From NCBI RefSeq assembly GCF_055900595.2, contig NZ_CM148325.1: a DNA stretch of 64,000 nt. One strand, written 5' to 3'. Under the pieces are notes generated by a model, which was given only the letters and a program-made list of their open reading frames with translations, ran no database searches and was not told where the DNA came from. The stretch's first letter is position 1. Every line of letters starts with the position of its first letter. Shown here one piece after another: positions 4,081 through 39,795 of this stretch. A program made the position numbers and the translations under genes.

Positions 4081-5550
4081 ATGGTTTCCGAAACTAAAAC
4101 CACAGAAGCGCCGGGCTTACGCCGTGAATTAAAGGCGCGTCACCTGACGATGATTGCCATTGGCGGTTCCATCGGTACAGGTCTTTTTGTTGCCTCTGGC
4201 GCAACGATTTCTCAGGCAGGTCCGGGCGGGGCATTGCTCTCGTATATGTTGATTGGCCTGATGGTTTACTTCCTGATGACCAGTCTCGGTGAACTGGCCG
4301 CATATATGCCGGTTTCCGGTTCGTTTGCCACTTACGGTCAGAACTATGTTGAAGAAGGCTTTGGCTTCGCGCTGGGCTGGAACTACTGGTACAACTGGGC
4401 GGTGACTATCGCCGTTGACCTGGTTGCTGCGCAGCTGGTTATGAGCTGGTGGTTCCCGGATACACCCGGTTGGATCTGGAGTGCGCTGTTCCTCGGCGTT
4501 ATCTTCCTGCTGAACTACATTTCGGTCCGTGGCTTTGGTGAAGCAGAATACTGGTTCTCACTGATCAAGGTTACGACGGTTATTGTCTTTATTGTTGTCG
4601 GCGTGCTGATGATTATCGGTATCTTCAAAGGCGCACAGCCTGCGGGCTGGAGCAACTGGACAATCGGCGAAGCACCGTTTGCTGGTGGTTTTGCGGCGAT
4701 GATCGGCGTAGCTATGATTGTCGGCTTCTCTTTCCAGGGAACCGAGCTGATCGGTATTGCTGCAGGCGAGTCCGAAGATCCGGCGAAAAACATTCCACGC
4801 GCGGTACGTCAGGTGTTCTGGCGAATCCTGTTGTTCTATGTGTTCGCGATCCTGATCATCAGCCTGATTATTCCGTACACCGATCCGAGCCTACTGCGTA
4901 ATGATGTGAAAGACATCAGCGTCAGTCCGTTCACCCTGGTATTCCAACACGCGGGTCTGCTCTCTGCGGCGGCGGTGATGAACGCTGTTATTCTGACGGC
5001 GGTGCTGTCAGCGGGTAACTCCGGTATGTATGCGTCTACTCGTATGTTGTACACCCTGGCGTGTGACGGTAAAGCGCCGCGCATTTTCGCTAAATTGTCG
5101 CGTGGTGGCGTGCCGCGTAACGCGCTGTATGCGACGACGGTGATTGCCGGTCTGTGCTTCCTGACCTCGATGTTTGGTAACCAGACGGTATACCTGTGGT
5201 TGCTGAACACCTCTGGTATGACAGGCTTTATTGCCTGGCTGGGGATTGCGATTAGCCACTACCGCTTCCGTCGCGGTTACGTATTGCAGGGACACGACAT
5301 TAACGATCTGCCGTACCGTTCAGGCTTCTTCCCACTGGGGCCGATCTTCGCATTCATTCTGTGTCTGATTATTACTTTGGGCCAGAACTACGAAGCGTTC
5401 CTGAAAGACACCATTGACTGGGGCGGCGTAGCGGCAACATATATTGGTATCCCGCTGTTCCTGATTATCTGGTTCGGATACAAGCTGATTAAAGGAACTC
5501 ACTTCGTACGCTACAGCGAAATGAAGTTCCCGCAGAACGATAAGAAATAA
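4081..5550 (+). CDS. lysP: Lysine-specific permease (APC family)
   Basis: 489 aa ORF MVSETKTTEAPGLRRELKARHLTMIAIGGSIGTGLF...; length and sequence as recalled for LysP. Confidence 0.95.
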   Translation: MVSETKTTEAPGLRRELKARHLTMIAIGGSIGTGLFVASGATISQAGPGGALLSYMLIGLMVYFLMTSLGELAAYMPVSGSFATYGQNYVEEGFGFALGWNYWYNWAVTIAVDLVAAQLVMSWWFPDTPGWIWSALFLGVIFLLNYISVRGFGEAEYWFSLIKVTTVIVFIVVGVLMIIGIFKGAQPAGWSNWTIGEAPFAGGFAAMIGVAMIVGFSFQGTELIGIAAGESEDPAKNIPRAVRQVFWRILLFYVFAILIISLIIPYTDPSLLRNDVKDISVSPFTLVFQHAGLLSAAAVMNAVILTAVLSAGNSGMYASTRMLYTLACDGKAPRIFAKLSRGGVPRNALYATTVIAGLCFLTSMFGNQTVYLWLLNTSGMTGFIAWLGIAISHYRFRRGYVLQGHDINDLPYRSGFFPLGPIFAFILCLIITLGQNYEAFLKDTIDWGGVAATYIGIPLFLIIWFGYKLIKGTHFVRYSEMKFPQNDKK

Positions 5551-5571
5551 GTTTCCTCCCTTCTTTGCTAA

Positions 5572-5597
5572 GCCCTCTCAACCGAGAGGGCTTTTTT
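5572..5597 (+). terminator. Rho-independent terminator after lysP
   Basis: GCCCTCTC-AACC-GAGAGGGC hairpin followed by TTTTTT. Confidence 0.8.
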
Positions 5598-5648
5598 AAT
5601 TCTATTTCACTGACAAATCATGCGGATATAAATTTTAACATTTGGATT

Positions 5649-5674
5649 GATAATTGTTATCGTTTGCATTATCG
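5649..5674. promoter_or_regulatory. Fur-box-like sequence in cirA promoter region
   Basis: GATAATTGTTATCGTTTGCATTATCG resembles the GATAATGATAATCATTATC consensus; cirA is a classic Fur-repressed gene. Confidence 0.6.
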
Positions 5675-5842
5675 TTACGCCGAAATCAAAAAAGGCTGAC
5701 AAATCAGGGGCTGTTCCGGCTTTCTGGGATGATCACCTGCATACAAATAAGTCCACCGCGATGCTGCCGTACGCAAGGGGACGTGAAGAAGATGTGAGCG
5801 ATAACCCATTTTATTTTCGTAGTTACCTCATGGAGATATGGA

Positions 5843-7822
5843 ATGTTTAGGTTTAACCCCTTCGTACGGGTCGGGCTGTGTTTGTCCGCTATTTCTTGTG
5901 CATGGCCTGTGTTAGCGGTCGATGATGATGGCGAAACGATGGTTGTCACTGCATCTTCCGTTGAGCAAAACCTTAAAGATGCACCCGCCAGTATCAGCGT
6001 CATTACCCAGGAAGACCTGCAGCGAAAACCGGTACAGAATCTGAAGGATGTCCTCAAAGAAGTGCCTGGCGTACAACTGACGAACGAAGGGGATAACCGT
6101 AAGGGCGTTAGTATTCGTGGTCTTGACAGCAGCTACACCCTGATTCTCGTCGACGGTAAACGCGTTAACTCCCGCAATGCCGTCTTCCGCCACAATGATT
6201 TCGATCTGAACTGGATCCCGGTCGATTCCATCGAACGTATTGAAGTGGTCCGTGGCCCGATGTCGTCGCTGTACGGTTCCGATGCGCTCGGCGGTGTCGT
6301 GAATATCATCACCAAAAAAATCGGTCAGAAATGGTCGGGTACCGTTACTGTCGATACCACCATTCAGGAACATCGCGATCGCGGTGATACCTATAACGGT
6401 CAGTTCTTTACCAGCGGACCATTAATTGACGGCGTGCTGGGAATGAAAGCTTACGGCAGCCTGGCAAAACGTGAAAAGGATGACCCACAAAACTCAACGA
6501 CCACCGATACCGGAGAAACGCCGCGTATTGACGGATTCTCCAGCCGCGACGGCAATGTGGAATTTGCCTGGACACCGAATCAAAATCACGATTTTACTGC
6601 CGGATACGGTTTTGACCGTCAGGATCGTGATTCCGACTCGCTGGACAAAAACCGCCTGGAACGTCAGAACTACTCCGTCAGCCATAATGGGCGTTGGGAT
6701 TACGGCACCAGCGAACTGAAATACTACGGTGAGAAAGTCGAAAACAAAAATCCTGGCAACAGCAGCCCGATTACTTCCGAAAGCAATACGGTCGATGGTA
6801 AATACACGTTGCCACTGACGGCGATTAATCAGTTTGTTACGGTTGGCGGTGAATGGCGTCACGACAAACTTAGCGATGCAGTAAACCTGACCGGAGGAAC
6901 AAGCTCCAAAACGTCTGCCAGCCAGTACGCGCTGTTTGTGGAAGATGAATGGCGGATCTTCGAGCCGCTGGCGCTGACGACCGGCGTGCGTATGGACGAT
7001 CACGAAACCTACGGTGAACACTGGAGTCCTCGTGCCTACCTGGTTTACAACGCCACCGACACCGTAACGGTGAAAGGGGGCTGGGCAACGGCATTTAAAG
7101 CGCCTTCTCTGTTGCAACTTAGCCCTGACTGGACGAGCAATTCCTGCCGTGGCGCATGCAAGATTGTGGGTAGCCCGGATCTGAAACCTGAAACCAGCGA
7201 AAGTTGGGAGCTGGGGCTTTACTACATGGGTGAAGAAGGCTGGCTGGAAGGGGTTGAATCCAGCGTGACCGTTTTCCGCAACGATGTAAAAGATCGTATC
7301 AGCATCAGCCGTACGTCTGACGTCAATGCTGCTCCGGGCTACCAAAACTTTGTCGGTTTTACAGCGGACGGTGTGCCAGTATTCAGCTACTACAACGTTA
7401 ACAAAGCACGTATTCAGGGCGTGGAAACCGAACTGAAAATTCCGTTCAACGATGAATGGAAACTGTCGATCAACTACACCTACAACGATGGTCGTGATGT
7501 CAGCAACGGCGAAAACAAACCGTTGTCCGATCTGCCGTTCCATACTGCTAACGGTACGCTGGACTGGAAACCGCTGGCGCTGGAAGACTGGTCATTCTAT
7601 GTTTCCGGACACTATACCGGGCAGAAACGCGCCGACAGCGCGACGGCTAAAACTCCGGGCGGTTATACCATCTGGAATACCGGCGCGGCCTGGCAGGTGA
7701 CCAAAGACGTCAAACTGCGTGCGGGCGTGCTGAACCTTGGCGACAAGGATCTCAGTCGTGACGACTACAGCTATAACGAAGACGGACGTCGTTACTTTAT
7801 GGCAGTGGATTATCGCTTCTGA
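5843..7822 (+). CDS. cirA: TonB-dependent catecholate siderophore / colicin IA-IB receptor CirA
   Basis: 659 aa ORF with signal peptide [25 protein letters not shown], TonB-box region, C-terminal ...AVDYRF. Confidence 0.95.
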
Positions 7823-7832
7823 TGCGAAGATG

Positions 7833-7854
7833 CCCGGCGTCGATCCCGCCGGGC
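7833..7854. terminator. GC-rich hairpin after cirA (possible bidirectional terminator)
   Basis: GCCCGGCG-N6-CGCCGGGC, 8 bp stem; no strong T-run. Confidence 0.5.
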
Positions 7855-7880
7855 ATAATCCCAGAAATTCGCTTCTGGCT

Positions 7881-9203
7881 TTATAACCGATGAAATTTTG
7901 CCAGTAAGGCCAGTGAAAATGTTGTCAGCAAAATGGTAATGACTGCGTAAATATACACTCCTGACCATTCCCAACTGTTTTTCACCATAATAACTGGAAG
8001 CCCTGCCATTGCCGCGCCTAAATAACTAAACAAGCCCCTGAATCCAGTAATGGAACCTGCCGCATCTTTATGCGTAACATCAAGACACCCGACAGCGAAT
8101 AACATATGCGGTCCATACAATGCAAACCCCATGATTGTAAACAGAATAGCCGTTAATGTGTAGGAGACGTCCTGCACCAGCGGTACGAGAACGATGCAAA
8201 TACATAAAGCGATGGCAAAGATTAATCCTGTCATCCAGCGGTTACTTTTAAACATGAAATCGGACAAGTACCCCGCCAGTAATCCCCCAGCAAGTCCACC
8301 TGCTTCAAACCAGGATATAATGGAGTTCGCTTTAATCAGGCTCCAGTTATGAACCTGAGAATAATAAATTTGTGGCCAGTCATTGAGGATGGTGCGTGCA
8401 ATATAGACCGACATATCCCCGAGGATAATGAGCCAAACTAATGGGTTGGTAAGAATATATTTAACGAATATTTGCCAAAAACTGAGATCAACCGGACTTG
8501 CTTTAACTTGTGCAAGTTCTGTCGGGTCGTTGCGCCACTTACCGACGTTAGGCAAACCGAGCGTGCTGGGACGATCTTTTATCGTAAATAAGGCAACAAT
8601 CCCCATAATCAGTGAGATTACACCCGGAACATAAAAGCCCATCTTCCAGCTGCCACTAAAAGCAATAGCAAAGCTTGTCAGGAGAGGCGCAAGACTACCG
8701 CCAATATTATGCGCAGCTTCAACAACTGCCCACCAGCGTCCGCGTTCATTTTTCGAGAACCACGAGGCCATAATTTTTGCCATTGGCGGAAAACTGGTAC
8801 CCTGGAGAATAGCATTAAGGCTATACAGGATATAGAACGCAGCAACGCTGTCTGAAAAACCGAAAAGAATGTTAACAATACCGACGCCAATAAGTACGGG
8901 GCCAGTCATCGCTCGTGGGTTAATTTTATCGACTAACATGCCACCTACAAACTTCATGGAGCCATAAAGAATGTAAAAGACCGACGACATGATAGCGAAA
9001 TCTTGTGCGGTTAATGACGTATCCGTTAACATCGCTGGCATGGCCGCAGAGAAATTCTTGCGGGTTAAGTAAAATACGGCATAAGAGATAAATACAGAGG
9101 TGATGATTTCAATGCGAAATTTTTTATAAGTATGATCAACTTCTTCTTTTGGTTTGACCACCGGTTGGTCGGCCTGGCTGAAAATAAATTTTTTCAAACT
9201 CAT
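7881..9203 (-). CDS. MFS transporter of the organophosphate:Pi antiporter family (GlpT/UhpT/PgtP-like)
   Basis: 440 aa; N-terminal DHTYKKFRIEIITSVFISYAVFYLTRKNFSAAMP and WFSKNERGRWWAVVEAAHNIGGSLAPLL align by eye with the recalled GlpT sequence; not part of K-12 cirA-yeiG interval. Confidence 0.75.
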   Translation of the reverse strand: MSLKKFIFSQADQPVVKPKEEVDHTYKKFRIEIITSVFISYAVFYLTRKNFSAAMPAMLTDTSLTAQDFAIMSSVFYILYGSMKFVGGMLVDKINPRAMTGPVLIGVGIVNILFGFSDSVAAFYILYSLNAILQGTSFPPMAKIMASWFSKNERGRWWAVVEAAHNIGGSLAPLLTSFAIAFSGSWKMGFYVPGVISLIMGIVALFTIKDRPSTLGLPNVGKWRNDPTELAQVKASPVDLSFWQIFVKYILTNPLVWLIILGDMSVYIARTILNDWPQIYYSQVHNWSLIKANSIISWFEAGGLAGGLLAGYLSDFMFKSNRWMTGLIFAIALCICIVLVPLVQDVSYTLTAILFTIMGFALYGPHMLFAVGCLDVTHKDAAGSITGFRGLFSYLGAAMAGLPVIMVKNSWEWSGVYIYAVITILLTTFSLALLAKFHRL

Positions 9204-9235
9204 TGTGAGTTTCCTTTTCTGTGAACCTTATGGCG

Positions 9236-10123
9236 CTATAATTTTTCTTCTATAAAAAAGAGAAGCGACTCGAAACCATTAAAATTAATCTGGTCAGCAA
9301 TTTTTTCCCGGGTTTTAGGTTTTGCTTTCCATGCCACGCCATTTCCGGCATGCAAAAGCATAGGAATATCATTGGCACCATCTCCACAGGCAATGATGTT
9401 TTCACGGCAGATAGCTAACTCTGTCGCTAAATTTATCAGGGTTTGCTTTTTCTTTTCTGCATTCATAATAGGTAAGGTAATTGTATCAGTTAACAGATCT
9501 TCCTTAATGCGCACAGAGTTAGAAAATGCAAAATCAAGTTGATATTTTTCCTTCAATCGCTCAGTAAAAATATCCAAACCTCCAGATATAATTGCCGTCT
9601 TGAATCCTTTTTCTTTTAGTATGGGAAGAATAGTTTCAAGACCTGGTGAAAGAGTCATCTGTTCACAAACTTGATGCAATATATCTTTATGCGTTCCTTT
9701 AAGCATGGCAATTCGCCGGGTAAAACTGGTATCAAAATCGATTTTCCCTTCCATCGCTTCACGGGTCAGTGCGGTGATTTTTTCAGAGATGCCGAGTCTA
9801 CGGGCTATTTCATCGACACCTTCTTCTTCAACAAAGGTGGAATCCATATCAAAGGCAATAATTCCCTGATCCGGTAAGACCCTGGGTTTACGGAAAAAAT
9901 CAAACTGATGATTATCAGCACGGTGACGTAAACCAGCATAAAAAGCAGGGTTGGTAACATCATTTGGTAATACTAGCTTTAGATACTCTCTATTTATTTG
10001 CCTACTGTAATTCGTTGTTAGCGAAAACACCGAGGGGGAAATCTTTAAATGTTGCAGATAATCTTTCAGACATTTTTGGGTGATGTCGATGCCTGTTGGC
10101 GACAAGAAATAAATAATCGTCAT
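9236..10123 (-). CDS. HAD-superfamily phosphatase, SerB-like (phosphoserine phosphatase family)
   Basis: 295 aa; HAD motifs FDMDSTF (DxDST), ISGG, GDGANDIPML in SerB-like order; upstream of and likely co-transcribed with the transporter. Confidence 0.75.
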   Translation of the reverse strand: MTIIYFLSPTGIDITQKCLKDYLQHLKISPSVFSLTTNYSRQINREYLKLVLPNDVTNPAFYAGLRHRADNHQFDFFRKPRVLPDQGIIAFDMDSTFVEEEGVDEIARRLGISEKITALTREAMEGKIDFDTSFTRRIAMLKGTHKDILHQVCEQMTLSPGLETILPILKEKGFKTAIISGGLDIFTERLKEKYQLDFAFSNSVRIKEDLLTDTITLPIMNAEKKKQTLINLATELAICRENIIACGDGANDIPMLLHAGNGVAWKAKPKTREKIADQINFNGFESLLFFIEEKL

Positions 10124-10222
10124 TTACCGCTCCTTTTTATCTGCAATGATTATAATAAGATTTCGTAGAAGCTGATGTATCTGACAATCACAGTTGTGAA
10201 TGTTAAATAAAAGATAAAAAAG

Positions 10223-10276
10223 TACTTTTTTGATACTTTGAAATAATAAGATACTAAAAGTACCATTTTTGATATC
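10223..10276. promoter_or_regulatory. Two direct repeats GTAC(N1-2)TTTTTGATA(C/T) in divergent promoter of the islet (candidate operator)
   Basis: GTACTTTTTTGATAC at 10223-10237 and GTACCATTTTTGATATC at 10260-10276; AT-rich 209 bp intergenic region. Confidence 0.4.
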
Positions 10277-10332
10277 TTTACCAGGATATAAAGAATAACT
10301 ATTTTTCAACGTTGAAGGAATCATTTACAAAT

Positions 10333-11685
10333 ATGGAAAGCTGCATAGATATATTCAAGATAGTTATTGGTCCATCCAGTTCCCGCACAGTCGGGCCAAT
10401 GCGTGCGGCTTATAATTTTGTGTCACAATTGAAACAGCAAGAAATGTTACCTTTGTTGCGGAAAATTGATGTCGAACTTTATGGTGCGCTGTCATTAAGC
10501 CGCAAGTGCCATAATGTTGATGTGGCGATTTATCTCGGTTTGCAAGGACACTTACCTGACAGCGTTGACATTCGCATGGAAATGTCCGCCATCAGGCGTG
10601 CAGAAACTGAGGCGACGCTGGAAGTTATGCCTGGTGTCAACGTCAGTGTATCCATTCTTTCTAATCTACAAGCGCATCCGGGGCACCCTTATGCGATGAC
10701 ATTTCGTGCCAGAGATGACTGGTTTACACTTTATGAAGAAACCTGGTTTTCTATCGGCGACGGTCAAGTGCTAAAAGCAGGAGAGGCGATTATTCCTCCA
10801 TCAGTCACTCCACATCCTTTTGAATTCCAGAACGCAAACGAATTATTAAAACTTTGTCAGCAAAACGGATTATCTGTCGCGGCATTAATGATGAAAAACG
10901 AACTGCACTGCCAGACAGCAGCTTTTTTGCATGACGATCTTCATAAAAAATGGGAAGTAATGAAGGAGGCGGTTTATCGCGGGATGCATACAGAAGGATT
11001 ACTTCCAGGTCCGTTTCAGGTTAACCGTCGTGCCTGTGCTTTATATAAATCGTTGCAGTCAAAGGGGTTTTCCAATGACTTCCTGACTACGCTCAATTGG
11101 GTCAATACTTTTGCCATTGCGGTGAGCGAAGAAAATGCTGCGGGTGGACGTGTCGTGACAGCACCCACCAACGGCGCGAGCGGTATTATCCCGGCTGTAC
11201 TGTGCTGGTATGATAAATTCATTCACGAGCTTGATACATACTCCGTTACCCGCTTTTTACTGACCGCTGGTGCCATCGCCATTCTGTTCAAAAAAAATGC
11301 CTCTATTCTGGGTTCTGAAGTTGGATGTCAGGGGGAAATAGGTGTTGCCAGTTCAATGGCGGCAGCAGGATTAGCAGAACTTATGGGCGGGTCAGTGGCT
11401 CAGGTACTTAGCGCGGCAGAAATTGCGATGGAGCATCATTTAGGTTTGACCTGTGATCCAGTTGGCGGGCAGGTACAAATTCCTTGTATTGAACGAAATG
11501 CTATTTCAGCTGTGAAAGCTATCAACGCAACGACGATGGCGTTGAGTCGCATAAGCGAGCCGTGCATTACGCTGGATGAGATAATTTCCGCGATGTATGA
11601 AACCGGAAAGGATATGAGCGCTAAATACCGTGAAACTTATCATGGCTGTCTGAGCAAATTGCAGCCAAGAAAAAAGGATGCGTAA
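10333..11685 (+). CDS. L-serine dehydratase-like protein (single-chain Fe-S type, SdaA/SdaB/TdcG family)
   Basis: ORF track begins at TTG 10312; ATG at 10333 gives [23 protein letters not shown] matching recalled SdaA N-terminus [23 protein letters not shown]; about 450 aa. Confidence 0.8.
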
Positions 11686-11686
11686 G

Positions 11687-12076
11687 ATGAAATATAATAC
11701 GATGAATAACAACGAAATTATTTTATCACTGTGCGCTCGCATTAAAGAAACGCGTATCTCATTATCATTGACCCAACAGCAGTTAGCCGAGCGTGCATTG
11801 GTGGGCATAGCAACGGTCAAGCGGATTGAAAAGGGGGGAAGTTTAAATCTTGATACTCTCATTTCTCTTCTGCGCGCGCTGAATAAATTGCAAAATCTCG
11901 ATGCCATATTGTTCGAAGCAGAAATGCGTAATTTCAACGAAAATAGTTCCAGCGGCGAAGGGGCAGGGCGACTACAGGTACGCCAGCAACTGACAGATTT
12001 AAACCAGAAGTCTCCAGCCCCGCACGCAGATGACCATAATTTTAGTACGGCGCTGGAAAATACCCTCTGCTGGTGA
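11687..12076 (+). CDS. XRE-family helix-turn-helix transcriptional regulator
   Basis: 129 aa; HTH segment LSLTQQQLAERALVGIATVKRIEKG; AGGA 8 nt upstream of ATG 11687; follows sdaA-like stop directly. Confidence 0.65.
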   Translation: MKYNTMNNNEIILSLCARIKETRISLSLTQQQLAERALVGIATVKRIEKGGSLNLDTLISLLRALNKLQNLDAILFEAEMRNFNENSSSGEGAGRLQVRQQLTDLNQKSPAPHADDHNFSTALENTLCW

Positions 12077-12946
<870 letters not shown>

Positions 12947-13170
12947 TCATCATACCGTTTATTCAATGTGCTGTGAGTAACTTTCACTTCCGTATATACA
13001 TAACGATGTTTTAACATCTGCTGATGAAAGGCAGCGGCAATTACAATAATTATCGCTGTGAATACTGGATTATGTGCGCCGCCTCACGCACAATAATCAG
13101 GCTGTAAATCAGCTTAATAACTTTGCCCCCACGCAGGGCGGAGGCGTCACACCTGCAGGAGAAATCATAA

Positions 13171-13855: not shown

Positions 13856-15013
13856 ATGGAGCGCAACGTCACGCTCGATTTTGTTCGCGGCGTCGCCATT
13901 CTGGGGATCCTGCTATTAAACATCAGCGCCTTTGGGTTACCAAAGGCGGCTTATCTCAATCCCGCCTGGTACGGCGCTATTACGCCGCAGGATGCATGGA
14001 CCTGGGCATTACTCGATCTCATCGGTCAGGTGAAATTCCTCACGCTTTTTGCGTTGCTGTTTGGTGCTGGCCTGCAAATGTTGCTACCCCGTGGCAAACG
14101 CTGGATCCAGTCGCGGTTAACACTGTTAGTCTTGTTGGGCTTTATTCACGGTTTATTGTTCTGGGACGGCGATATTCTGTTGGCTTACGGGCTGGTGGGC
14201 TTAATCTGTTGGCGGCTGGTGCGCGATGCGCCATCGGTAAAAAGCCTGTTTAATACCGGCGTCATGCTTTATCTGGTGGGGCTTGGCGTTTTGCTGTTGT
14301 TGGGGTTGATTTCAGACAGTCAGACCAGCCGCGCCTGGACGCCGGATGCATCGGCTATTTTGTATGAAAAATACTGGAAGCTTCATGGCGGCGTTGAAGC
14401 GATCGGTAACCGTGCCGATGGAGTTGGGAACAGTTTACTGGCACTGGGCGCACAGTATGGCTGGCAACTGGCAGGGATGATGCTAATTGGCGCGGCGCTG
14501 ATGCGCAGTGGCTGGCTGAAAGGGCAGTTTAGCTTGCGCCATTATCGGCGTACCGGTTTTGTGCTGGTGGCGATTGGGGTGATCATTAACCTTCCAGCGA
14601 TCGCCCTGCAATGGCGGCTGGACTGGGCATATCGCTGGTGCGCCTTCTTACTTCAGATGCCGCGGGAACTGAGTGCGCCGTTTCAGGCGGTTGGCTATGC
14701 GTCGCTGTTTTATGGTTTCTGGCCGCAATTGAGCCGCTTTAAGCTGGTGCTCGCGATCGCCTGCGTCGGACGGATGGCGCTGACCAACTATCTATTGCAA
14801 ACGCTGATTTGTACCACGCTTTTTTATCACCTCGGTTTGTTTATGCAGTTTGACCGTCTGGAATTGCTGGCGTTTGTTATTCCGGTATGGCTGGCGAATA
14901 TTCTCTTCTCTGTTATCTGGCTGCGTTACTTCCGTCATGGGCCGGTGGAATGGCTCTGGCGTCAGTTAACTTTACGTGCTGCCGGACCTGCATTATCTAA
15001 AACATCAAGATAA
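13856..15013 (+). CDS. yeiB: Inner membrane protein YeiB (DUF418)
   Basis: 385 aa polytopic membrane ORF immediately downstream of folE. Confidence 0.88.
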   Translation: MERNVTLDFVRGVAILGILLLNISAFGLPKAAYLNPAWYGAITPQDAWTWALLDLIGQVKFLTLFALLFGAGLQMLLPRGKRWIQSRLTLLVLLGFIHGLLFWDGDILLAYGLVGLICWRLVRDAPSVKSLFNTGVMLYLVGLGVLLLLGLISDSQTSRAWTPDASAILYEKYWKLHGGVEAIGNRADGVGNSLLALGAQYGWQLAGMMLIGAALMRSGWLKGQFSLRHYRRTGFVLVAIGVIINLPAIALQWRLDWAYRWCAFLLQMPRELSAPFQAVGYASLFYGFWPQLSRFKLVLAIACVGRMALTNYLLQTLICTTLFYHLGLFMQFDRLELLAFVIPVWLANILFSVIWLRYFRHGPVEWLWRQLTLRAAGPALSKTSR

Positions 15014-17533: not shown

Positions 17534-19054
17534 ATGGTCAGCTCAACGACTCCGTCTTCCGGGGAATACTTGTTGGAAATGAGCGGTATCAACAAGTCTT
17601 TTCCGGGTGTTAAGGCACTTGATAACGTTAATTTAAAAGTCCGGCCACATTCTATCCATGCATTAATGGGGGAAAACGGCGCAGGAAAATCAACATTATT
17701 AAAATGCCTGTTTGGTATTTATCAAAAAGACTCCGGCACCATTTTGTTCCAGGGTAAAGAGATCGATTTTCATTCTGCCAAAGAAGCACTGGAAAATGGT
17801 ATTTCGATGGTACACCAGGAATTAAACCTGGTATTACAACGTTCGGTGATGGACAACATGTGGCTGGGGCGATATCCCACCAAAGGCATGTTTGTCGATC
17901 AGGACAAAATGTACCGCGAAACCAAAGCGATTTTTGATGAGCTGGATATTGATATCGATCCGCGTGCGCGCGTCGGCACATTATCCGTTTCGCAAATGCA
18001 GATGATCGAAATCGCCAAAGCGTTTTCCTATAACGCGAAAATTGTGATTATGGATGAACCGACATCTTCGTTAACTGAAAAAGAGGTCAATCATCTTTTC
18101 ACTATTATTCGTAAATTAAAAGAGCGCGGTTGCGGTATTGTTTATATCTCGCATAAAATGGAAGAAATCTTCCAGTTATGTGATGAAGTCACCGTATTGC
18201 GCGACGGTCAGTGGATCGCTACCGAACCGCTGGCAGGGCTAACGATGGACAAGATCATCGCCATGATGGTTGGACGCTCTCTTAACCAGCGTTTCCCTGA
18301 CAAAGAAAACAAGCCGGGCGAAGTGATTCTGGAAGTGCGTAATCTGACGTCGCTGCGCCAGCCGTCGATTCGCGATGTCTCGTTTGATCTGCATAAAGGG
18401 GAGATCCTCGGTATTGCCGGTCTGGTGGGGGCGAAACGTACCGATATTGTTGAGACGTTATTTGGTATTCGCGAGAAATCGGCTGGCACCATTACGTTGC
18501 ACGGTAAAAAGATCAATAACCATAACGCTAACGAAGCCATAAACCACGGATTTGCACTGGTAACTGAAGAGCGCCGCTCAACGGGAATTTATGCCTATCT
18601 GGATATTGGCTTTAACTCGTTAATTTCCAATATCCGCAACTACAAAAATAAAGTTGGCTTGCTGGATAACTCGCGGATGAAAAGCGATACCCAGTGGGTA
18701 ATTGATTCGATGCGGGTAAAAACGCCGGGACATCGTACGCAAATTGGTTCACTCTCCGGCGGTAATCAGCAAAAGGTAATTATTGGGCGCTGGCTGCTTA
18801 CGCAACCAGAAATATTAATGCTCGATGAACCAACGCGCGGTATTGATGTCGGAGCGAAGTTTGAAATTTATCAGTTAATTGCCGAACTGGCGAAGAAAGG
18901 CAAGGGGATTATTATTATTTCCTCCGAAATGCCAGAGTTGTTAGGGATAACAGACCGTATTCTGGTCATGAGCAATGGTCTCGTTTCCGGAATTGTCGAT
19001 ACAAAAACAACAACGCAAAACGAAATTCTGCGTCTTGCGTCTTTGCACCTTTAA
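17534..19054 (+). CDS. mglA: Galactose/methyl-galactoside ABC transporter ATP-binding protein (tandem ABC domains)
   Basis: 506 aa; Walker [10 protein letters not shown] and second ABC domain. Confidence 0.95.
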
Positions 19055-21386: not shown

Positions 21387-22618
21387 GAGCAAGCTCCCTC
21401 TAAATAGTGATGAATCGCCTCGGCGGCTTCTTTCCCGGTTTTCACGGCATAAACCACGGTTTTGTCACCCTCAACAATATCGCCAGCAGCAAAGACTTGC
21501 GGGTCGCGGGTCTGGTAATTTTGTGTTTTGATGGTGTTACGCTGCGGCTCTAACTCCGCAAAGGCATCCAGTCTGGCATGCTGACCGACGGCGAGAATAA
21601 TTTTATCTGCCGCCATCGTCAGTTCGCCCGGTAAGCGTACATGCTTAAACGTGACTTTATTGCCTTCCACGGCCACTGGTGTGAATCCATCGATGATCGA
21701 AACGCCCAACTCCCGGGCGCTGGCAAACTCTTTTTCGCTTGCCGGAAACTCATCTAACTCTTCACGTGCTACGCAGGTTACCGCCTGACAGCCGAGAACT
21801 TTCAGCGTGCTGGCAACGTCCATCGCGACATCACCGCCGCCGATAATTAATGCGCTTTGTGGAATGCTGATATCGCCCTGCGCCTGCCGTGCACGTTGCA
21901 AGAAGTCGACGGCAATCTCAACGTCGCTATGCTCAAACAGCGGTAGCCCGGAACCGCCCGACAACCCTACGGTGACAAGTACTGCGCGGTTTTCCGCTTT
22001 CAGTTGCTCCAGGGTGAGTACTTTACCGATTTCGTTATTGCACTTAATGGTCACCCCCATTTTTTCGATACGGGCGATCTCTGCATCCAGCACGGTTTGC
22101 GGCAAACGAAATTGCGGAATACCGTTACACAGCCAGCCACCGGGTTGCGCTTCTTTTTCATAAATAGTGACGTCGTACCCCATATTTGTCAGCGTCACGC
22201 TGGCCTGCAATCCAGCAGGACCTGCGCCAATAATGGCGACTTTGCCGAGCGTTTTAGTACCAGGCTGATAAATTTCCATCCCGGTTTGTTGTTCAAAATC
22301 AGTGATAAAACGCTGTAAGCGACCGATATCAATGGGATCATCAACACCGGCACGGGTACAACCGCTTTGACATAATTTCTCCGTCGGGCACACTCTGGCA
22401 CAAACGGCACCGAGGGCATTATTTTCGCGAATTGTCTCGGCAGCGCCTTTAAAATTACGAAAGTAGATTGAGCGTATAAATTTCCCCGGATCGGTTTGTG
22501 CCGGGCAAGCCTGACTACAGGGCGCGTCGTGACATAATAAACAGCGAGAGGCTTCTTTAATCGCCAGTAAAGGCGTAAAAGCCGGAGTGAGTTCATCCAG
22601 ATAATTTTGTTGCGGCAT
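21380..22618 (-). CDS. preT: Dihydropyrimidine dehydrogenase subunit PreT
   Basis: 412 aa [14 protein letters not shown]...; FAD/NAD Rossmann GAGPAG; overlaps preA start (coupling). Confidence 0.9.
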
Positions 22619-22650
22619 GTGATCTTCCTTAATGCTATGAGTAATTAAGG

Positions 22651-22780
22651 CGAACGCTAAATATACTCGTCATACTTCAAGTTGCATGTGCTGCGTCTGC
22701 GTTAGCTCACCCCAGTCACTTGTCGCCTTCCTGCAACTCGAATTATTTAGAGCATAAATATTGCTTGCTGATATTAAGGC
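22651..22780. repeat. ERIC (IRU) intergenic repeat
   Basis: Contains GTCATACTTCAAGTTGCA ... GCTCACCCCAGTCACTT core recognised from ERIC consensus (reverse orientation). Confidence 0.7.
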
Positions 22781-22803
22781 TAAGCGTGTGGGGAAATTTA
22801 AAC

Positions 22804-22819
22804 TGTGAAAGCATTCACA
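22804..22819. promoter_or_regulatory. Perfect CRP half-site pair TGTGA-AAGCAT-TCACA upstream of preTA
   Basis: Read directly; about 190 bp upstream of preT start codon. Confidence 0.55.
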
Positions 22820-22904
22820 AATAGCTGCGGTTCAGAATGTTATATCCGCAGCTTATTGACTGAAGTAATAATTATTCTCAATAATTAACAGGGGAGGGAC
22901 AATA

Positions 22905-26196: not shown

Positions 26197-26290
26197 TTAA
26201 TTCGTAAAACGTGCTACCGATCACATTAAGAATTCTCAGCATAGTTGAATTACAGGGAAGTAACATCGGGCGAGTGCCCAGTTCAGCACA

Positions 26291-27199
26291 CTAATTCTGC
26301 TGTAAAAAGTGCAGAAACTGACTTAAAGCATAAGAAGGCGTTTCGTTATTACGCCAAAACACACCGACGCTGCCTTTCTGTTCAATCTTTGGCAGGTTGA
26401 GGATCACCAGTTGCCCCTGGCTGGCATAACGTTGCGCCAGGCGTAATGACAAAATAGAGATCATATTGCTGCTTTGTAACAGGTTGGTACTGACGTTCAT
26501 CGACGCCGACTCAATCGTGTTTTCTGGCAGCATCACGCCGTGGTCTACCAGCGCATTATCAATGCTGATGCGGATGGGGGTACCTGTCGGCCAGACTATC
26601 CACCGCCAGTTAGCAAGATCATTCCAGCTGAGGGTGGCGTATTTCGCCAGTGGATGCTCAGGACGGGCGACAAAGCATACCGGCTCGGTGTAGAGCACGC
26701 GATAATTCAGCGGCAGCTGCAACGCGCGACCGCCAATTCGCCCAACCACCACATCGATAGAACCTGCCAACAGATCTTGCAGCAATGGGGTCATCACCTT
26801 CTCTTCGATATTCAGGTGTAGAGTTGGCATCTCCTTGAGCAAATGCAAAATCGCCTGGGATACGCAGTCAGTGGCGACGGGAGAACAGCCAATTTTCAGA
26901 CTGCCGACCAGTCCACCTTGTTTAAAGCGAGCCAGTTCATATTGCGATCTTTCCATGTCATTGATTAACCGTTGGGCATGTTGCAATAACAATTTGCCGC
27001 CTTCAGTAGGACGAAGTCCTTTGCTGTGCCGCTCAAAAAGTGTGAGTTCGATCTCATCTTCGAGTTGTGACAACCATTTCGACAGCGCAGGCTGGGTGAT
27101 ATTCATCATCCGCGCGACATGGGTCAGATTGCCCTGTTCACCCAGCGCCACCAGCATTTGCAGGTGATGTAGTTTTAGTTTTTGCGCCCAGTTCGCCAT
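26291..27199 (-). CDS. mhbR: LysR-family regulator of the 3-hydroxybenzoate/gentisate cluster
   Basis: HTH LTHVARMMNITQPALSKWLSQLE; start placed at MANWAQ (ATG 27197-27199) preceded by GGAGG; divergent from catabolic operon. Confidence 0.75.
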   Translation of the reverse strand: MANWAQKLKLHHLQMLVALGEQGNLTHVARMMNITQPALSKWLSQLEDEIELTLFERHSKGLRPTEGGKLLLQHAQRLINDMERSQYELARFKQGGLVGSLKIGCSPVATDCVSQAILHLLKEMPTLHLNIEEKVMTPLLQDLLAGSIDVVVGRIGGRALQLPLNYRVLYTEPVCFVARPEHPLAKYATLSWNDLANWRWIVWPTGTPIRISIDNALVDHGVMLPENTIESASMNVSTNLLQSSNMISILSLRLAQRYASQGQLVILNLPKIEQKGSVGVFWRNNETPSYALSQFLHFLQQN

Positions 27200-27325
27200 T
27201 TGCCATAACCTCCAGGTTATCTCTCTGTCCGAAATGCCATTGTACATCTCATCTCTTTAATTACATTATCGCAACATACATAAAACAAAAGAAACATCTA
27301 CCTTACCTGCACTGAGGCATTTACT

Positions 27326-28684
27326 ATGACTCAACGACGTGATTTACAAGCACTGATCGATGCTGCTCCGGTCGGCAAGATGCAGTGGCGCGTTATCATC
27401 TGCTGTTTTCTGGTGGTAATGCTCGATGGTTTTGACACCGCGGCTATCGGATTTATCGCCCCTGATATTCGCACTCACTGGCAACTCACCGCAGGCGATC
27501 TCGCCCCGCTTTTTGGCGCGGGTCTGCTGGGATTAACCGCAGGCGCACTGCTTTGTGGCCCGTTGTCCGATCGCTTTGGTCGCAAGCGGGTGATTGAGCT
27601 GTGCGTCTTTTTGTTTGGCGCGTTAAGCCTCGCCTCGGCTTTCTCACCGGATCTGCAAACGCTGGTCTTCCTGCGCTTTCTCACCGGCCTGGGTCTGGGC
27701 GGCGCGATGCCGAACACCATCACCATGACCTCGGAATATCTGCCTGCCCGCCGCCGAGGCGCGCTGGTGACGCTGATGTTTTGCGGCTTTACGCTGGGTT
27801 CGGCGTTTGGCGGGATTGTCAGCGCACAGCTGGTGCCGGTGATTGGCTGGCACGGCATTCTGGTGTTGGGTGGCGTGTTACCGCTGATGCTGTTTGTCGC
27901 ACTGCTGGTAGTTCTGCCGGAATCGCCACGCTGGCAGGTGCGCCGCCAGCTACCGCAGGCGGTGATTGCGAAAACCGTCAGCGCCATCACCCGCGAGCGT
28001 TATGTCGATACCCACTTTTATCTCATTGAATCAGCCTCCGTTACAAAAGGCAGCATTCGTCAACTGTTTATGGGACGTCAGTTACCCATCACGTTGATGT
28101 TGTGGGTAGTGTTCTTTATGAGCCTGCTGATTATTTACCTGCTCTCAAGCTGGATGCCGACGCTACTGAACCATCGCGGCATCGACCTGCAACACGCGTC
28201 CTGGGTCACCGCCGCGTTCCAGATTGGTGGTACGTTAGGCGCGCTGGCGCTGGGCGTGCTGATGGATAAGTTCAATCCTTTCCGCGTGCTGGCGCTGAGC
28301 TATGCCGTAGGCGCTGTATGCATCGTGATGATTGGCTTAAGCCAGGATGGATTATGGCTGATGGCGCTGGCGATTTTCGGCACCGGCATTGGCATTAGCG
28401 GATCTCAGGTGGGGTTGAACGCGTTGACCGCAACGCTCTACCCAACGCAAAGCCGCGCCACGGGCGTGAGCTGGTCAAACGCCGTAGGCCGCTGCGGCGC
28501 GATTGTCGGCTCGCTTTCTGGCGGCCTGATGATGGCGATGAATTTCTCTTTCGACACCCTGTTTTTCATTATCGCTGTGCCCGCGGCGATCAGTGCGGTG
28601 ATGTTAAGCCTGCTGATCACCGTGGTTCGCCAGTCGACCTCTGTCCCTGACTCACTGCCTCGCGCAGGCATTGTGAACGAATAA
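27326..28684 (+). CDS. mhbT: MFS aromatic-acid transporter (3-hydroxybenzoate/gentisate transporter-like)
   Basis: 452 aa; MFS signature [12 protein letters not shown]; first gene of operon. Confidence 0.75.
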
Positions 28685-28695
28685 GGAGCATCCTA

Positions 28696-29724
28696 ATGAC
28701 TGATAACAATCAAAAAAGCCGCGAGCAATTTTATCAGCATATTTCCGGGCAAAACCTGACCCCGCTGTGGGAGTCACTGCACCACCTGGTGCCGAAAACG
28801 CCCAACGCCAACTGTGCGCCAGCGTACTGGAATTATCAGGAGATCCGCCCGCTGCTGCTGGAGAGCGGCAGCCTGATTGGCGCGAAAGAAGCTGTGCGTC
28901 GTGTGCTGGTACTGGAAAACCCGGCGCTGCGCGGGCAGTCTTCCATCACCGCGACTTTGTATGCTGGTTTGCAACTGATCATGCCGGGCGAAGTGGCACC
29001 GAGTCATCGTCATAACCAATCGGCGCTGCGTTTTATTGTTGAAGGCAAAGGGGCATTTACCGCCGTTGATGGCGAACGCACGCCAATGAATGAGGGCGAT
29101 TTTATCCTGACCCCACAATGGCGCTGGCACGATCACGGTAACCCTGGCGACGAACCGGTTATCTGGCTCGATGGGCTGGATCTGCCATTAGTGAACACTC
29201 TGGGCTGCGGTTTTGCCGAAGATTACCCGGAAGAGCAACAACCGGTAACGCGTAAAGAGGGCGATTATCTGCCACGTTACGCTGCCAATATGTTGCCGCT
29301 GCGCCATCAGACCGGGAACTCCTCACCCATCTTTAACTACCGTTATGACCGTAGCCGCGAAGTGCTGCACGATTTAACCCGCCTGGGCGATGCCGATGAG
29401 TGGGATGGCTACAAAATGCGCTACGTCAACCCGGTCACCGGCGGCTATCCGATGCCGTCGATGGGCGCTTTCCTGCAACTGCTGCCGAAAGGGTTCGCCT
29501 CACGCGTGGCGCGTACTACTGACAGCACCATCTATCACGTGGTGGAAGGCGACGGGCAGGTCACTATCGGCAATGAAACCTTCAGCTTTAGTGCAAAAGA
29601 TCTCTTTGTGGTGCCGACCTGGCACGGCGTGTCGTTCCAGACCACGCAAGATACCGTTTTATTCAGTTTTTCGGACAGACCGGTACAAGAAGCCCTGGGG
29701 CTGTTCCGCGAAGCGCGTTATTAA
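28696..29724 (+). CDS. mhbD: Gentisate 1,2-dioxygenase (bicupin)
   Basis: 342 aa; cupin His motifs ([13 protein letters not shown]..., [10 protein letters not shown]); RBS AAGGAG. Confidence 0.8.
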
Positions 29725-29739
29725 TTTGGGAGAGAGAAA

Positions 29740-30441
29740 ATGACTCAATATGTATTCGAACCACAAGCGCCCGTTACCGTACCGGTTGTTGGCGGTGATG
29801 AACAATTCCCCGTGCGCCGCGTTTACTGCGTCGGGCGTAACTATGCCGCCCACGCCCGCGAAATGGGCTTTGATCCGGATCGTGAACCCCCCTTCTTCTT
29901 CTGCAAACCAGCAGATGCCGTTGTTCCGGTCGCCGCTGGCGAAACGCTGGCGCTGCCGTATCCGGCGCAGACCGATAACTATCATTACGAAATTGAACTG
30001 GTGGTGGCGATTGGTAAAAAGGGCAGCGATATCCCACTGGAAAAGGCCCATGAATATGTCTGGGGTTATGCCACAGGCCTTGATATGACGCGCCGGGACC
30101 GTCAAATGGAAATGCGTCAGATGGGCCGCCCGTGGGAAATCGGCAAAGCATTTGATCTCTCGGCCCCCATCGCACCGCTGCACAAAGCCAGCGAAACCGG
30201 CGGTATTGATAACGCACCAATCTGGTTACAGGTAAACGGTGAAGATCACCAGCGCAGCGATATTCGTCATCTCATCTGGTCAGTGAATGAAACCATCAGC
30301 TACCTGTCAGGCTTCTTTGAACTGCAACCGGGCGATCTGATCTTCACTGGTACGCCAGAAGGGGTGGGCCCGGTAGTGAAAGGTGATGTGATCACGGGCA
30401 ACGTCGAGGGCTTAACCCCTATCGCGGTGAAGATTGTCTGA
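29740..30441 (+). CDS. mhbH: Fumarylpyruvate hydrolase (FAH family)
   Basis: 233 aa FAH-family protein [41 protein letters not shown]. Confidence 0.75.
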
Positions 30442-30446
30442 GGTGC

Positions 30447-31094
30447 ATGATGAAGCTGTACAGTTTTTTTAATAGTTCAGCATCGTACCGGGTACGCATT
30501 GCGCTGGCGCTGAAAGGCATTAATTACCAGACCGAAGGGGTGAATATCCGTATTGGTCAGCAAAATGAACTGGCCTATCGGCGGATGAATCCTGTCGGGC
30601 TGGTGCCGACGCTGCTGACTGACGAGGGCGAGTCACTCGGTCAGTCGCTGGCGATTATTGACTGGCTGGATCGTCACTACCCGCAAGTTCCGCTGGTGCC
30701 GCAGGAAGAACCGGCCCGCAACAAGGTGCTGGAAATTGTCTATGCCATCGCTTGTGATATTCATCCATTGAATAACCTGCGCGTGCTGCGCTACCTGACC
30801 GAAGAGCTGAACGTCAGTGAAGAAGAGAAAAAACGCTGGTATGCGCACTGGATCCAGCAAGGGTTAAGCGCGGTGGAACAGCTACTGCGCCAGAGCCAGT
30901 CGGGGCAATTTTGTGTGGGTGAGACGCCGACGCTGGCAGACTGCTGCCTTGTTCCGCAGTGGGCGAACGCGCTACGTATGAACTGCGATCTGAGTGGATA
31001 TCCGCGCTGCAAAGCGGTGTACGACGCCTGCACACAACTGCCAGCGTTCATTGCCGCAGCGCCAGAAAATCAACAAGATAAAATTTCAGCCTGA
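30447..31094 (+). CDS. mhbI: Maleylpyruvate isomerase (GST-zeta-like)
   Basis: about 214 aa GST-fold MKLYSFFNSSASYRVRIALALKGINY; start could be 30447 or 30450. Confidence 0.75.
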   Translation: MMKLYSFFNSSASYRVRIALALKGINYQTEGVNIRIGQQNELAYRRMNPVGLVPTLLTDEGESLGQSLAIIDWLDRHYPQVPLVPQEEPARNKVLEIVYAIACDIHPLNNLRVLRYLTEELNVSEEEKKRWYAHWIQQGLSAVEQLLRQSQSGQFCVGETPTLADCCLVPQWANALRMNCDLSGYPRCKAVYDACTQLPAFIAAAPENQQDKISA

Positions 31095-31108
31095 CCAGGA
31101 GAACCATA

Positions 31109-32302
31109 ATGACTAAAGTGACACGCGCAGTAATTGTGGGAGGCGGGATCGGCGGTGCGGCAACTGCGCTGTCACTGGCCCGCCAGGGGATCAAAGTGGT
31201 GCTGCTGGAAAAGGCGCATGAGATCGGTGAGATCGGCGCAGGCATCCAGTTGGGGCCAAACGCGTTTTCGGCGTTGGATAGTCTTGGTGTTGGCGAAATC
31301 GCCCGCCAGCGCGCGGTGTTTACCGATCACATCACCATGATGGATGCGGTGAACGCCGAAGAAGTGGTGCGTATTGAAACCGGGCAGGCCTTTCGTGACC
31401 ATTTCGGCGGCCCTTACGCGGTGATCCATCGCGTTGATATTCATGCCTCGGTATGGGAAGCGGTACTGACGCATCCGGACGTGGAGTATCACACCTCCAC
31501 AAACGTCGTTGATATTCGCGAGACGCCGGACGATGTCACCGTTTTCGACGATCGAGGTAATAGCTGGAGCGGCGATATTTTGATTGGCTGTGATGGCGTG
31601 AAGTCAGTGGTGCGCCAGAGCTTATTAGGCGATGCGCCGCGCGTCACCGGTCATGTGGTCTACCGTGCGGTTATCGATTGTGCGGATATGCCGGAAGATT
31701 TACGTATTAATGCGCCGGTATTGTGGGCGGGTCCGCACTGTCACCTGGTGCATTATCCTTTGCGCGGCGGCAAGCAGTATAACCTGGTGGTGACATTCCA
31801 CAGTCGCCACCAGGAAGAGTGGGGCGTGAAGGATGGCAGTAAAGAGGAAGTGCTCTCTTACTTTGAAGGGATTCACCCCCGTCCGCGCCAGATGCTGGAT
31901 AAACCGACTTCATGGCGACGCTGGTCAACCGCTGACCGTGAACCGGTGGCGAAGTGGGGAACGAAGCGCATAACGCTTGTGGGCGATGCGGCTCATCCGG
32001 TGGCGCAATATATGGCACAAGGTGCCTGTATGGCGCTGGAAGATGCAGTAACGCTGGGTAAGGCGCTGGCGCAGTGTGAGGGTGATGCGGCGCAAGCTTT
32101 TGCGCTGTATGAGTCGGTACGTATTCCGCGTACCGCGCGCATCGTCTGGTCGACCCGTGAAATGGGGCGGGTTTATCACGCCGCAGGGGTAGAACGTCAG
32201 GTACGTAATCTGCTGTGGAAAGGGAAATCGCAGGCAGAGTTTTATCGCGGCATGGAGTGGCTGTACGGCTGGAAAGAAGATAACTGTCTGCAACCACGCT
32301 GA
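31109..32302 (+). CDS. mhbM: 3-hydroxybenzoate 6-hydroxylase (FAD-dependent aromatic monooxygenase)
   Basis: 397 aa; FAD-binding VIVGGGIGGAATALSLARQGIKVVLLEK and GDAAHP motif. Confidence 0.8.
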   Translation: MTKVTRAVIVGGGIGGAATALSLARQGIKVVLLEKAHEIGEIGAGIQLGPNAFSALDSLGVGEIARQRAVFTDHITMMDAVNAEEVVRIETGQAFRDHFGGPYAVIHRVDIHASVWEAVLTHPDVEYHTSTNVVDIRETPDDVTVFDDRGNSWSGDILIGCDGVKSVVRQSLLGDAPRVTGHVVYRAVIDCADMPEDLRINAPVLWAGPHCHLVHYPLRGGKQYNLVVTFHSRHQEEWGVKDGSKEEVLSYFEGIHPRPRQMLDKPTSWRRWSTADREPVAKWGTKRITLVGDAAHPVAQYMAQGACMALEDAVTLGKALAQCEGDAAQAFALYESVRIPRTARIVWSTREMGRVYHAAGVERQVRNLLWKGKSQAEFYRGMEWLYGWKEDNCLQPR

Positions 32303-32448: not shown

Positions 32449-32590
32449 TGCACAGAAAACCCCCAGCTAGGCTGGGGGTTCCGGAAAGCTTTCAGCTTTG
32501 AGCCAGTTATTAAAACCCCTTTTGATTTGTTAAAACACCTTGCGGTCTGGCAACTGCAAGTGTCAAACAAGAAATCAAAAGGGGGTCCCA

Positions 32591-38516: not shown

Positions 38517-38689
38517 CAAGTTCTTTTGCGTTGCATTGCTGGCGTAAATGTCAGCAATGCAGCATTTCCTCACGATTCTCCTTTGACGATCGCACTTTTT
38601 GCTCGTTATGATGGCGTTGCTAGCCTCAGTAAATCCTTACTCCGGCGGTGCGCAACCTGTGCGCGTGAACCACTATCTGAATGCTCATC

Positions 38690-39624: not shown

Positions 39625-39795
39625 GTAGGCAGGATAAGGCGTTTACGCCGCATCAGGCATTCGGAGCACAATGCCTGATGCGATGCTTGCGCATCTTATC
39701 AGGCCTACAAACGTGACGCGTCCGTAGGCAGGATAAGGCGTTCACGCCGCATCCGGCATTCGGTGCACGATGCCTGATGCGATGCTTCTATTTGC
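39625..39795. repeat. Cluster of REP elements (BIME-like) between pbpG and dld
   Basis: Repeated GCCTGATGCGATGCTT / GGCAGGATAAGGCGTTTACGCCGCATC units in alternating orientation. Confidence 0.85.

Follow-up and report, generated by a model that had tools for sequence, protein, structure and literature searches.

The predicted Fur operator of cirA in an Escherichia coli chromosome matches the footprinted K-12 site and overlies two tandem sigma-70 promoters

Results

The lysP-cirA intergenic region

The whole stretch of DNA that was analysed, hereafter the window, is 64,000 nt of an E. coli chromosome. A 601-bp probe over the site under study matched 5425 of 5426 complete E. coli genomes and was 100% identical to strain E200086 (NZ_CM128605.1), where the gene coordinates agree with those of the window. 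Two genes on the same strand bound the region of interest, lysP and cirA, which encodes the catecholate siderophore and colicin Ia/Ib receptor. The product of cirA scored 1441 bits against the NCBIfam CirA equivalog NF007478 (cutoff 745). The genes are separated by 292 bp (58% A+T), and a terminator scan placed a strong intrinsic terminator at the upstream end of this gap, where a T run follows a G+C-rich stem of 10 bp (5570-5593). This terminator insulates cirA transcription from lysP.

4081-5550, plus strand: lysP (RefSeq annotation of the 100%-identical record)
5570-5599, plus strand: intrinsic terminator of lysP (terminator scan)
5843-7822, plus strand: cirA coding sequence, 659 aa (NF007478 equivalog; RefSeq annotation of the 100%-identical record)

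The 26-mer GATAATTGTTATCGTTTGCATTATCG lies exactly at 5649-5674 within this gap. A sequence-only reading of the window had taken it for a Fur-box-like operator upstream of cirA, made of overlapping Fur hexamers, and had flagged the whole of 5600-5842.

A Fur box upstream of cirA scores highest in the window

We constructed a 19-bp Fur matrix from 15 E. coli K-12 sites (fhuA, fepA-fes, fepD-entS, entC, gpmA, sufA, yoeA, mntH, exbB, bfd, ryhB, sodA, fecI, fhuF and nohA), leaving out cir. The site centres were taken from Table 4 of Chen et al. 2007 (PMC2189734) and converted to NC_000913.3 coordinates. When compared with the annotated gene starts, 13 of the 15 converted centres were exact; the start of fes has since been re-annotated, and for nohA the stretch compared contained no annotated gene. 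Footprint or gel-shift evidence is recorded in the table of Chen et al. for 12 of the 15 sites. The consensus of the matrix was AATGATAATCATTATCATT.

5646-5664, unstranded: core 19-bp Fur box ATTGATAATTGTTATCGTT (22.54 bits, independent matrix)

The segment 5646-5664 scored 22.54 bits and ranked first among the ~64,000 positions of the window (mean -28.8, sd 9.9). The 15 reference sites scored between 17.4 and 28.1 bits when each was left out in turn, and the cirA box falls within this range, so the weight-matrix check proposed in the sequence-only reading came out in its favour. The exact per-position probability of the score was 1.6e-8, corresponding to an expectation of ~0.001 matches per 64 kb and of 3e-5 matches in the intergenic region at its own composition. 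The core box contains a 7-1-7 inverted repeat, TGATAAT-T-GTTATCG, at 5648-5662 with its centre at 5655, and is thus a GATAATGATAATCATTATC-type 19-bp site with a 7-1-7 inverted repeat that scores like proven Fur sites. A search with the Fur dimer palindrome GATAATNATTATC returned GATAATTGTTATC (5649-5661, one mismatch) as the sole match in the window at ≤1 mismatch; at ≤2 mismatches there were 10 matches, compared with 2.6 +/- 1.5 in shuffled sequences.

The box coincides with the Fur-protected region of K-12

The DNase I footprint of Fur on cir (Griggs & Konisky 1989) is listed by Chen et al. 2007 in Table 3 at NC_000913.2 2244957-2244999 (PMC2189734). The strongest cir Fur site of the same study (20.7 bits) is at 2244980, -189 from the ATG, and is one of three overlapping sites in a 31-bp cluster (PMC2189734). 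The offset from NC_000913.2 to NC_000913.3 was +1978, as determined from the cirA start at 2246769 in the later version and at 2244980 - 189 = 2244791 in the earlier one. In this calculation the "Position" column of Chen et al. is counted from the annotated start, a rule that reproduces 13 other gene starts.

5636-5678, unstranded: 43-bp region corresponding to the Fur DNase I footprint on K-12 cir (Table 3 of Chen et al. 2007 and K-12 alignment)

After conversion of the tabulated coordinates, and with a 1-nt deletion in the cirA leader of this strain taken into account, the listed footprint corresponds to 5636-5678 and the centre of the strongest site to 5655, which is also the centre of our best matrix match. 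The box therefore coincides with the experimentally mapped Fur-protected region of K-12 as Chen et al. list it. Since both the footprint and the strongest site map onto the box, the listed K-12 sites are found in the same place as the proposed operator and not elsewhere. The intergenic region as a whole is 98% identical to that of MG1655, with no differences in 5634-5682. The differences are at 5564, 5597, 5603, 5609, 5633, 5683 and 5708, a 1-nt deletion after 5742, and 5744. A metal-dependent Fur footprint or gel shift has been published for the identical K-12 sequence, as cited by Chen et al. 2007 (PMC2189734). The cirA Fur operator is thus already known and canonical, and the present one is base-for-base identical to the K-12 site footprinted in 1989. 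It also counts among the sites on which Fur models were first built.

An incidental resemblance would require that the AT-rich string is merely the -35 and -10 elements of cirA and is not specifically bound by Fur. Promoter hexamers are indeed present in the string (TTGATA at 5647-5652, TATCGT at 5658-5663 and again at 5670-5675), and the A+T content of the intergenic region is somewhat raised (58%). Against this, only 3e-5 matches of this score are expected in 292 bp of that composition, no base differs from the footprinted K-12 site, and both Fur occupancy and Fur-dependent cirA expression have been reported (PMC4676285, PMC7157518). We therefore give an incidental resemblance practically no credence. 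The 26-mer at 5649-5674 was rightly recognised as a Fur-box-like operator, as both the rank of the core box in the matrix scan and the overlap with the K-12 footprint indicate.

The Fur-protected region overlaps two tandem promoters

Two cirA promoters, with leaders of 173 nt (p1) and 160 nt (p2), are given for K-12 by Guillier & Gottesman 2008, who cite Griggs et al. for them (PMC2588501). These cited lengths place the starts in the window at A5671 (p1) and A5684 (p2). The p1 leader is 172 nt here as compared with 173 nt in K-12 because of the 1-nt deletion after 5742. A consensus scan revealed two promoter-like hexamer pairs, 12 bp apart, at suitable distances from the published starts, and we infer that they are the -35 and -10 elements of p1 and p2.

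5635-5663, plus strand: promoter p1, with -35 TTAACA (5635-5640), a 17-nt spacer and a TG-extended -10 TATCGT (5658-5663); start at 5671 (consensus scan and published leader)
5647-5675, plus strand: promoter p2, with -35 TTGATA (5647-5652, in the Fur box), a 17-nt spacer and -10 TATCGT (5670-5675); start at 5684 (consensus scan and published leader)

The site thus serves as an anchor for promoter mapping, as had been anticipated from the letters. Relative to the start sites, the footprint reaches from -35 to +8 for p1 and from -48 to -6 for p2, and the 19-bp box holds the -35 element of p2 together with the spacer and -10 element of p1. The -35 and -10 elements and the starts of both promoters lie in or at the edge of 5636-5678. 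A footprint over both promoters fits repression by promoter occlusion, which is probably how Fur acts here. In K-12, Fur is bound upstream of cirA and the gene is de-repressed in fur mutants (PMC4676285); the same has been reported for CFT073 (PMC7157518). In addition, cirA is a member of the Fur-1 iModulon (PMC10164565).

Another regulator, such as CRP, ArcA, Fnr or H-NS, could in principle be the chief occupant of the sequence in place of Fur. Stimulation of cir by cAMP-CRP is said to have been described by Griggs et al. in 1990. Furthermore, cirA transcript levels differ with O2 even in Fur-minus strains (PMC4676285), which means that other inputs exist. Such regulators would supplement Fur control and not substitute for it. 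The sequence has the matrix score of a genuine Fur box and falls within the Fur footprint, we found no evidence for another regulator's site on 5646-5664, and no convincing CRP site (TGTGA-N6-TCACA) was seen by eye. Moreover, iron regulation is reported to be lost in a K-12 fur mutant in which the box is intact. An operator used chiefly by a regulator other than Fur is hence very unlikely.

The hexamer array is lopsided

The reading of GATAATTGTTATCGTTTGCATTATCG as overlapping Fur hexamers was examined by scoring the neighbouring registers of the matrix and by comparing the in-phase hexamers from 5649 with NAT(A/T)AT, which has five specified positions. The hexamers GATAAT, TGTTAT, CGTTTG and CATTAT agreed at 5, 4, 2 and 5 of these positions, respectively. 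The matrix gave +4.2 bits at centre 5661, -0.2 at 5649 and -2.2 at 5667, so that two registers scored above 0 bits with this matrix as compared with the three sites of Chen et al. 2007.

5652-5670, unstranded: weak second Fur register, centre 5661, 6 bp to the right of the core (4.24 bits)

With at least three in-phase hexamers or overlapping sites spaced by 6 bp taken as the definition of an array, the array is real but lopsided. The low scores of the neighbouring registers indicate that the specific signal sits in the left two-thirds of GATAATTGTTATCGTTTGCATTATCG, and the core itself begins 3 nt to the left of the start of the string. The hexamer claim accordingly holds for the left part, which belongs to the 22.5-bit box at 5646-5664; the right part found no support of its own from the matrix (-2.2 bits, centre 5667), and its ATTATC (5668-5673) also forms part of the p2 -10 element.

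These scores raise a refinement more than a rival, namely that the sequence-specific Fur site is 5646-5664 only and that 5665-5674 (GCATTATCG) is the -10 region of p2 and not a separate hexamer site, its protection resulting from cooperative spread of Fur from the core. The drop from 22.5 bits at centre 5655 to +4.2 at 5661 and -2.2 at 5667 speaks for this, as do the position of the p2 -10 element (TATCGT, 5670-5675) and the observation of Chen et al. 2007 that Fur footprints reach into flanks barely resembling strong sites (PMC2189734). On the other side, an inverted GATAAT hexamer without mismatch (ATTATC, 5668-5673) keeps the 6-bp phase of the core, Chen et al. 2007 counted three overlapping sites in a 31-bp cluster (PMC2189734), and the GCATTATCG stretch is conserved like the core in Enterobacter asburiae, although the search pattern fixed six of its bases. 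We regard the chances of this refinement as evenly balanced. In either case the Fur operator is centred on the core at 5646-5664.

The cirA leader and its small RNA sites

The flagged range 5600-5842 proved too wide for an operator. The core at 5646-5664 and the protected region 5636-5678 lie within it, but 5671-5842 is the cirA leader.

5671-5842, plus strand: 5' untranslated leader of cirA, 172 nt (p1) or 159 nt (p2) (published leader lengths and K-12 alignment)
5783-5803, plus strand: predicted RyhB pairing site, core AUGUGAGC, -60 to -40 (seed-region duplex scan)
5824-5833, plus strand: OmrA/OmrB pairing site TACCTCATGG, -19 to -10 (Guillier & Gottesman 2008, PMC2588501)

The folding energy of the leader was no better than that of shuffled sequences (z = +0.59), which gives no sign of a structured element, and no Rfam family matched in 5500-5900. 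Activation of cirA by RyhB has been reported (PMC4676285, PMC7157518). In our duplex scan, nt 40-59/62 of RyhB paired with the leader at about -21 to -22 kcal/mol. As 4.5% of shuffled leaders paired equally well, the predicted RyhB site at 5783-5803 is marginal (p about 0.045). The OmrA/OmrB site overlaps the Shine-Dalgarno sequence GGAG (5832-5835), and its sequence is the same in K-12 and in E. asburiae.

Conservation and natural variation of the operator

Among 5371 matching E. coli genomes, the 47-mer 5634-5680 was unchanged in 4853, and the remaining 518 (~10%) carried one or two changes. Three E. coli variants were sampled (A5638T, T5641C and A5671G), none of them inside the 19-bp core. 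A5638T weakens the -35 hexamer of p1, and A5671G alters the p1 start together with the conserved second-position A of the p2 -10 element. Other sampled E. coli strains showed extra changes at 5623, 5682 and 5715, beyond the footprint. In E. coli strain 19SZHZ803Rt (NZ_CP080066.1; locus extract L017, 2558-3340), the cirA promoter is interrupted by an IS1A element at a position equivalent to about 5676 of the window. The insertion directly follows ATTATCG, in the p2 -10 element and a few bases past the p1 start, and splits both promoters from the leader and the gene.

We performed a cross-species scan of a species-representative genome collection using the pattern TTGATAATNNTTATCNNNNNNATTATC. 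This pattern fixed 19 positions within the box, and hence only the remaining positions are independent evidence of conservation. The cirA upstream regions compared, among the matches listed, were those of E. coli, E. whittamii, Escherichia sp. E1V33 and Enterobacter asburiae (at least five cirA orthologous loci); cirA of Salmonella, Citrobacter and Klebsiella lay outside this comparison. The segment 5646-5679, with its 19 pattern-fixed positions, had the sequence of the window in E. whittamii, Escherichia sp. E1V33 and E. asburiae, and the leader diverged. The 19-bp core showed no change in any of the compared sequences from E. coli, Escherichia and Enterobacter. In E. asburiae, whose CirA is 86.5% identical over the first 200 aa, 5623-5640 and 5646-5679 were kept and the rest of the intergenic region was rearranged. 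The leader of this species is 58 nt shorter and heavily diverged, and the block of the Shine-Dalgarno sequence and OmrA/OmrB site is perfectly kept. The edge of the conserved block falls within one base of the edge of the footprint. The box is thus conserved relative to its flanks in orthologous promoters, with the reservation that 19 of its positions were pattern-fixed.

Among the 80 matches listed, most of them from unrelated genomes, at least 15 CirA-like TonB-dependent receptor genes carried the box pattern 60-230 nt upstream and in the same orientation. At least 10 of these 15 loci encode non-orthologous receptors, 29-49% identical to CirA, preceded by the pattern TTGATAAT-N2-TTATC-N6-ATTATC, in the genera Parahaliea, Pseudoalteromonas, Thalassotalea, Raoultella, Klebsiella and Enterobacter. 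The presence of the box pattern before non-orthologous receptors fits a generic Fur box.

The window carries two rare alleles at the promoter flanks, T5633 and A5683. Of the roughly 5,400 E. coli genomes, no more than 16 were ≥99% identical to the window across the region; these matches are few because most genomes carry the K-12 state at 5633 and 5683. E. whittamii, Escherichia sp. E1V33 and E. asburiae each carry one of the two alleles, which suggests neutral ancestral variation. Differences were also seen in the gene product. CirA is 659 aa here as compared with 663 aa in K-12, with 98.5% identity, and the differences cluster in a short indel patch at K-12 residues 507-515 (about codons 507-511 in the window), comprising E507T, deletion of T508, G509, R513 and R514, N511D and I515V. 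The remaining substitutions are L4F, E230D and L332V. It is conceivable but improbable that T5633, A5683 and the 1-nt deletion after 5742 change the use of p1 and p2 or the tightness of Fur or small RNA control and, together with the four-residue deletion in CirA, alter susceptibility to colicins Ia/Ib or to siderophore-conjugated antibiotics.

Other features of the window

The second-best match to the Fur matrix was at 22864-22882 (AGTAATAATTATTCTCAAT, 21.3 bits) in the yeiS-preT intergenic region. This region (22609-22894) is 286 bp long as compared with 193 bp in K-12, about 92 bp longer, and the inserted block puts the Fur site at -265 from preT instead of at -163. The block contains AAGTGACTGGGGTGAGC, which we take to resemble an ERIC/IRU repeat. 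Weaker matches were found at 13039-13057 (AATTACAATAATTATCGCT, 13.0 bits) in the yeiG-folE intergenic region and at 17756-17774 (14.8 bits) within mglA.

Two gene clusters were also noted. The genes cirA and yeiG adjoin each other in K-12; here they are separated by a four-gene insert (7823-12077) encoding a UhpC/PgtP-like MFS transporter, a SerB-type phosphoserine phosphatase, an L-serine ammonia-lyase and a helix-turn-helix protein. A 3-hydroxybenzoate/gentisate catabolic cluster (26281-32292) is located between yohJ and dusC and comprises a LysR regulator gene, mhbT, gtdA, a fumarylacetoacetate-hydrolase-family gene, maiA and a 3-hydroxybenzoate 6-monooxygenase gene. The gene yeiB (13857-15003) is a frameshifted pseudogene according to the 100%-matching RefSeq record. 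Rfam matches above the gathering score were the Hfq-binding small RNA STnc490 (32458-32581, 146 bits), the Peptidase-S11 cis-regulatory RNA (38605-38685, within the 3' portion of the pbpG reading frame, 74 bits) and naRNA4 (39628-39705, 77 bits).

Discussion

Collectively, these results make it almost certain that the sequence upstream of cirA would function as the Fur operator of E. coli cirA, placed over two tandem sigma-70 promoters. This assignment is based on the sequence match, the identity with K-12, the coincidence with the published footprint and starts, and conservation; Fur binding, iron regulation and the small RNA effects are taken from the literature.

A mechanism can be proposed from the arrangement of these elements. 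In the presence of iron, Fe2+-Fur dimers would nucleate on the 19-bp box at 5646-5664 and then extend across 5636-5678, covering the -35 element, spacer, -10 element and start of p1 as well as the -35 element, spacer and -10 element of p2. RNA polymerase would be shut out and cirA would be off. When iron is absent, Fur would lose its metal and depart, and transcription would begin at 5671 (p1) and 5684 (p2). Small RNAs would then further tune the 172- or 159-nt leader, with RyhB activating cirA translation and OmrA/B repressing it at the ribosome-binding site.

The site is useful as an annotation anchor, since the cirA promoters, starts, Fur-protected region and small RNA targets can be placed to the base in this strain. 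The cirA regulatory region is intact and wild-type, and nothing here points to new biology. Colicins Ia/Ib, microcin V and catechol-conjugated antibiotics all enter the cell through CirA. With the Fur-controlled promoter intact, normal iron-dependent expression of this point of entry is predicted.

The closest known system is the K-12 cir operator over p1 and p2, at the same lysP-cirA locus. The identical segment 5634-5682 takes in the start of p1, the -35 and -10 elements of both promoters and the full 43 bp of the footprint. Its spacing from the ATG differs only by the 1-nt leader deletion. The two differ at 5633 (T here, A in K-12), 2 nt upstream of the p1 -35 element, and at 5683 (A here, C in K-12), position -1 of p2, both beyond the footprint. 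Three more differences lie in the leader, at 5708, after 5742 (the 1-nt deletion) and at 5744. The preT (yeiT) Fur site at 22864-22882 is likewise identical to a K-12 site, scored at 19.6 bits by Chen et al. 2007 (PMC2189734), and a Fur ChIP-seq signal has been reported at the preT promoter (Beauchene et al. 2015, PMC4676285). It precedes the dihydropyrimidine dehydrogenase operon, whereas the cirA box precedes an iron-uptake gene. The Fur boxes of fhuA, fepA-fes, fepD-entS, entC, exbB, fecI, fhuF and ryhB have the AATGATAATCATTATCATT-type 19-bp palindrome in common with the cirA box, and other E. coli iron-uptake boxes also overlap the core promoter, with scores of 17.4-28.1 bits as compared with 22.5 bits for cirA. 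Unlike these boxes, that of cirA serves two overlapping promoters 12-13 bp apart. It is also unusually distant from the start codon (-189) in comparison with other iron-uptake boxes, because of the long leader regulated by small RNAs.
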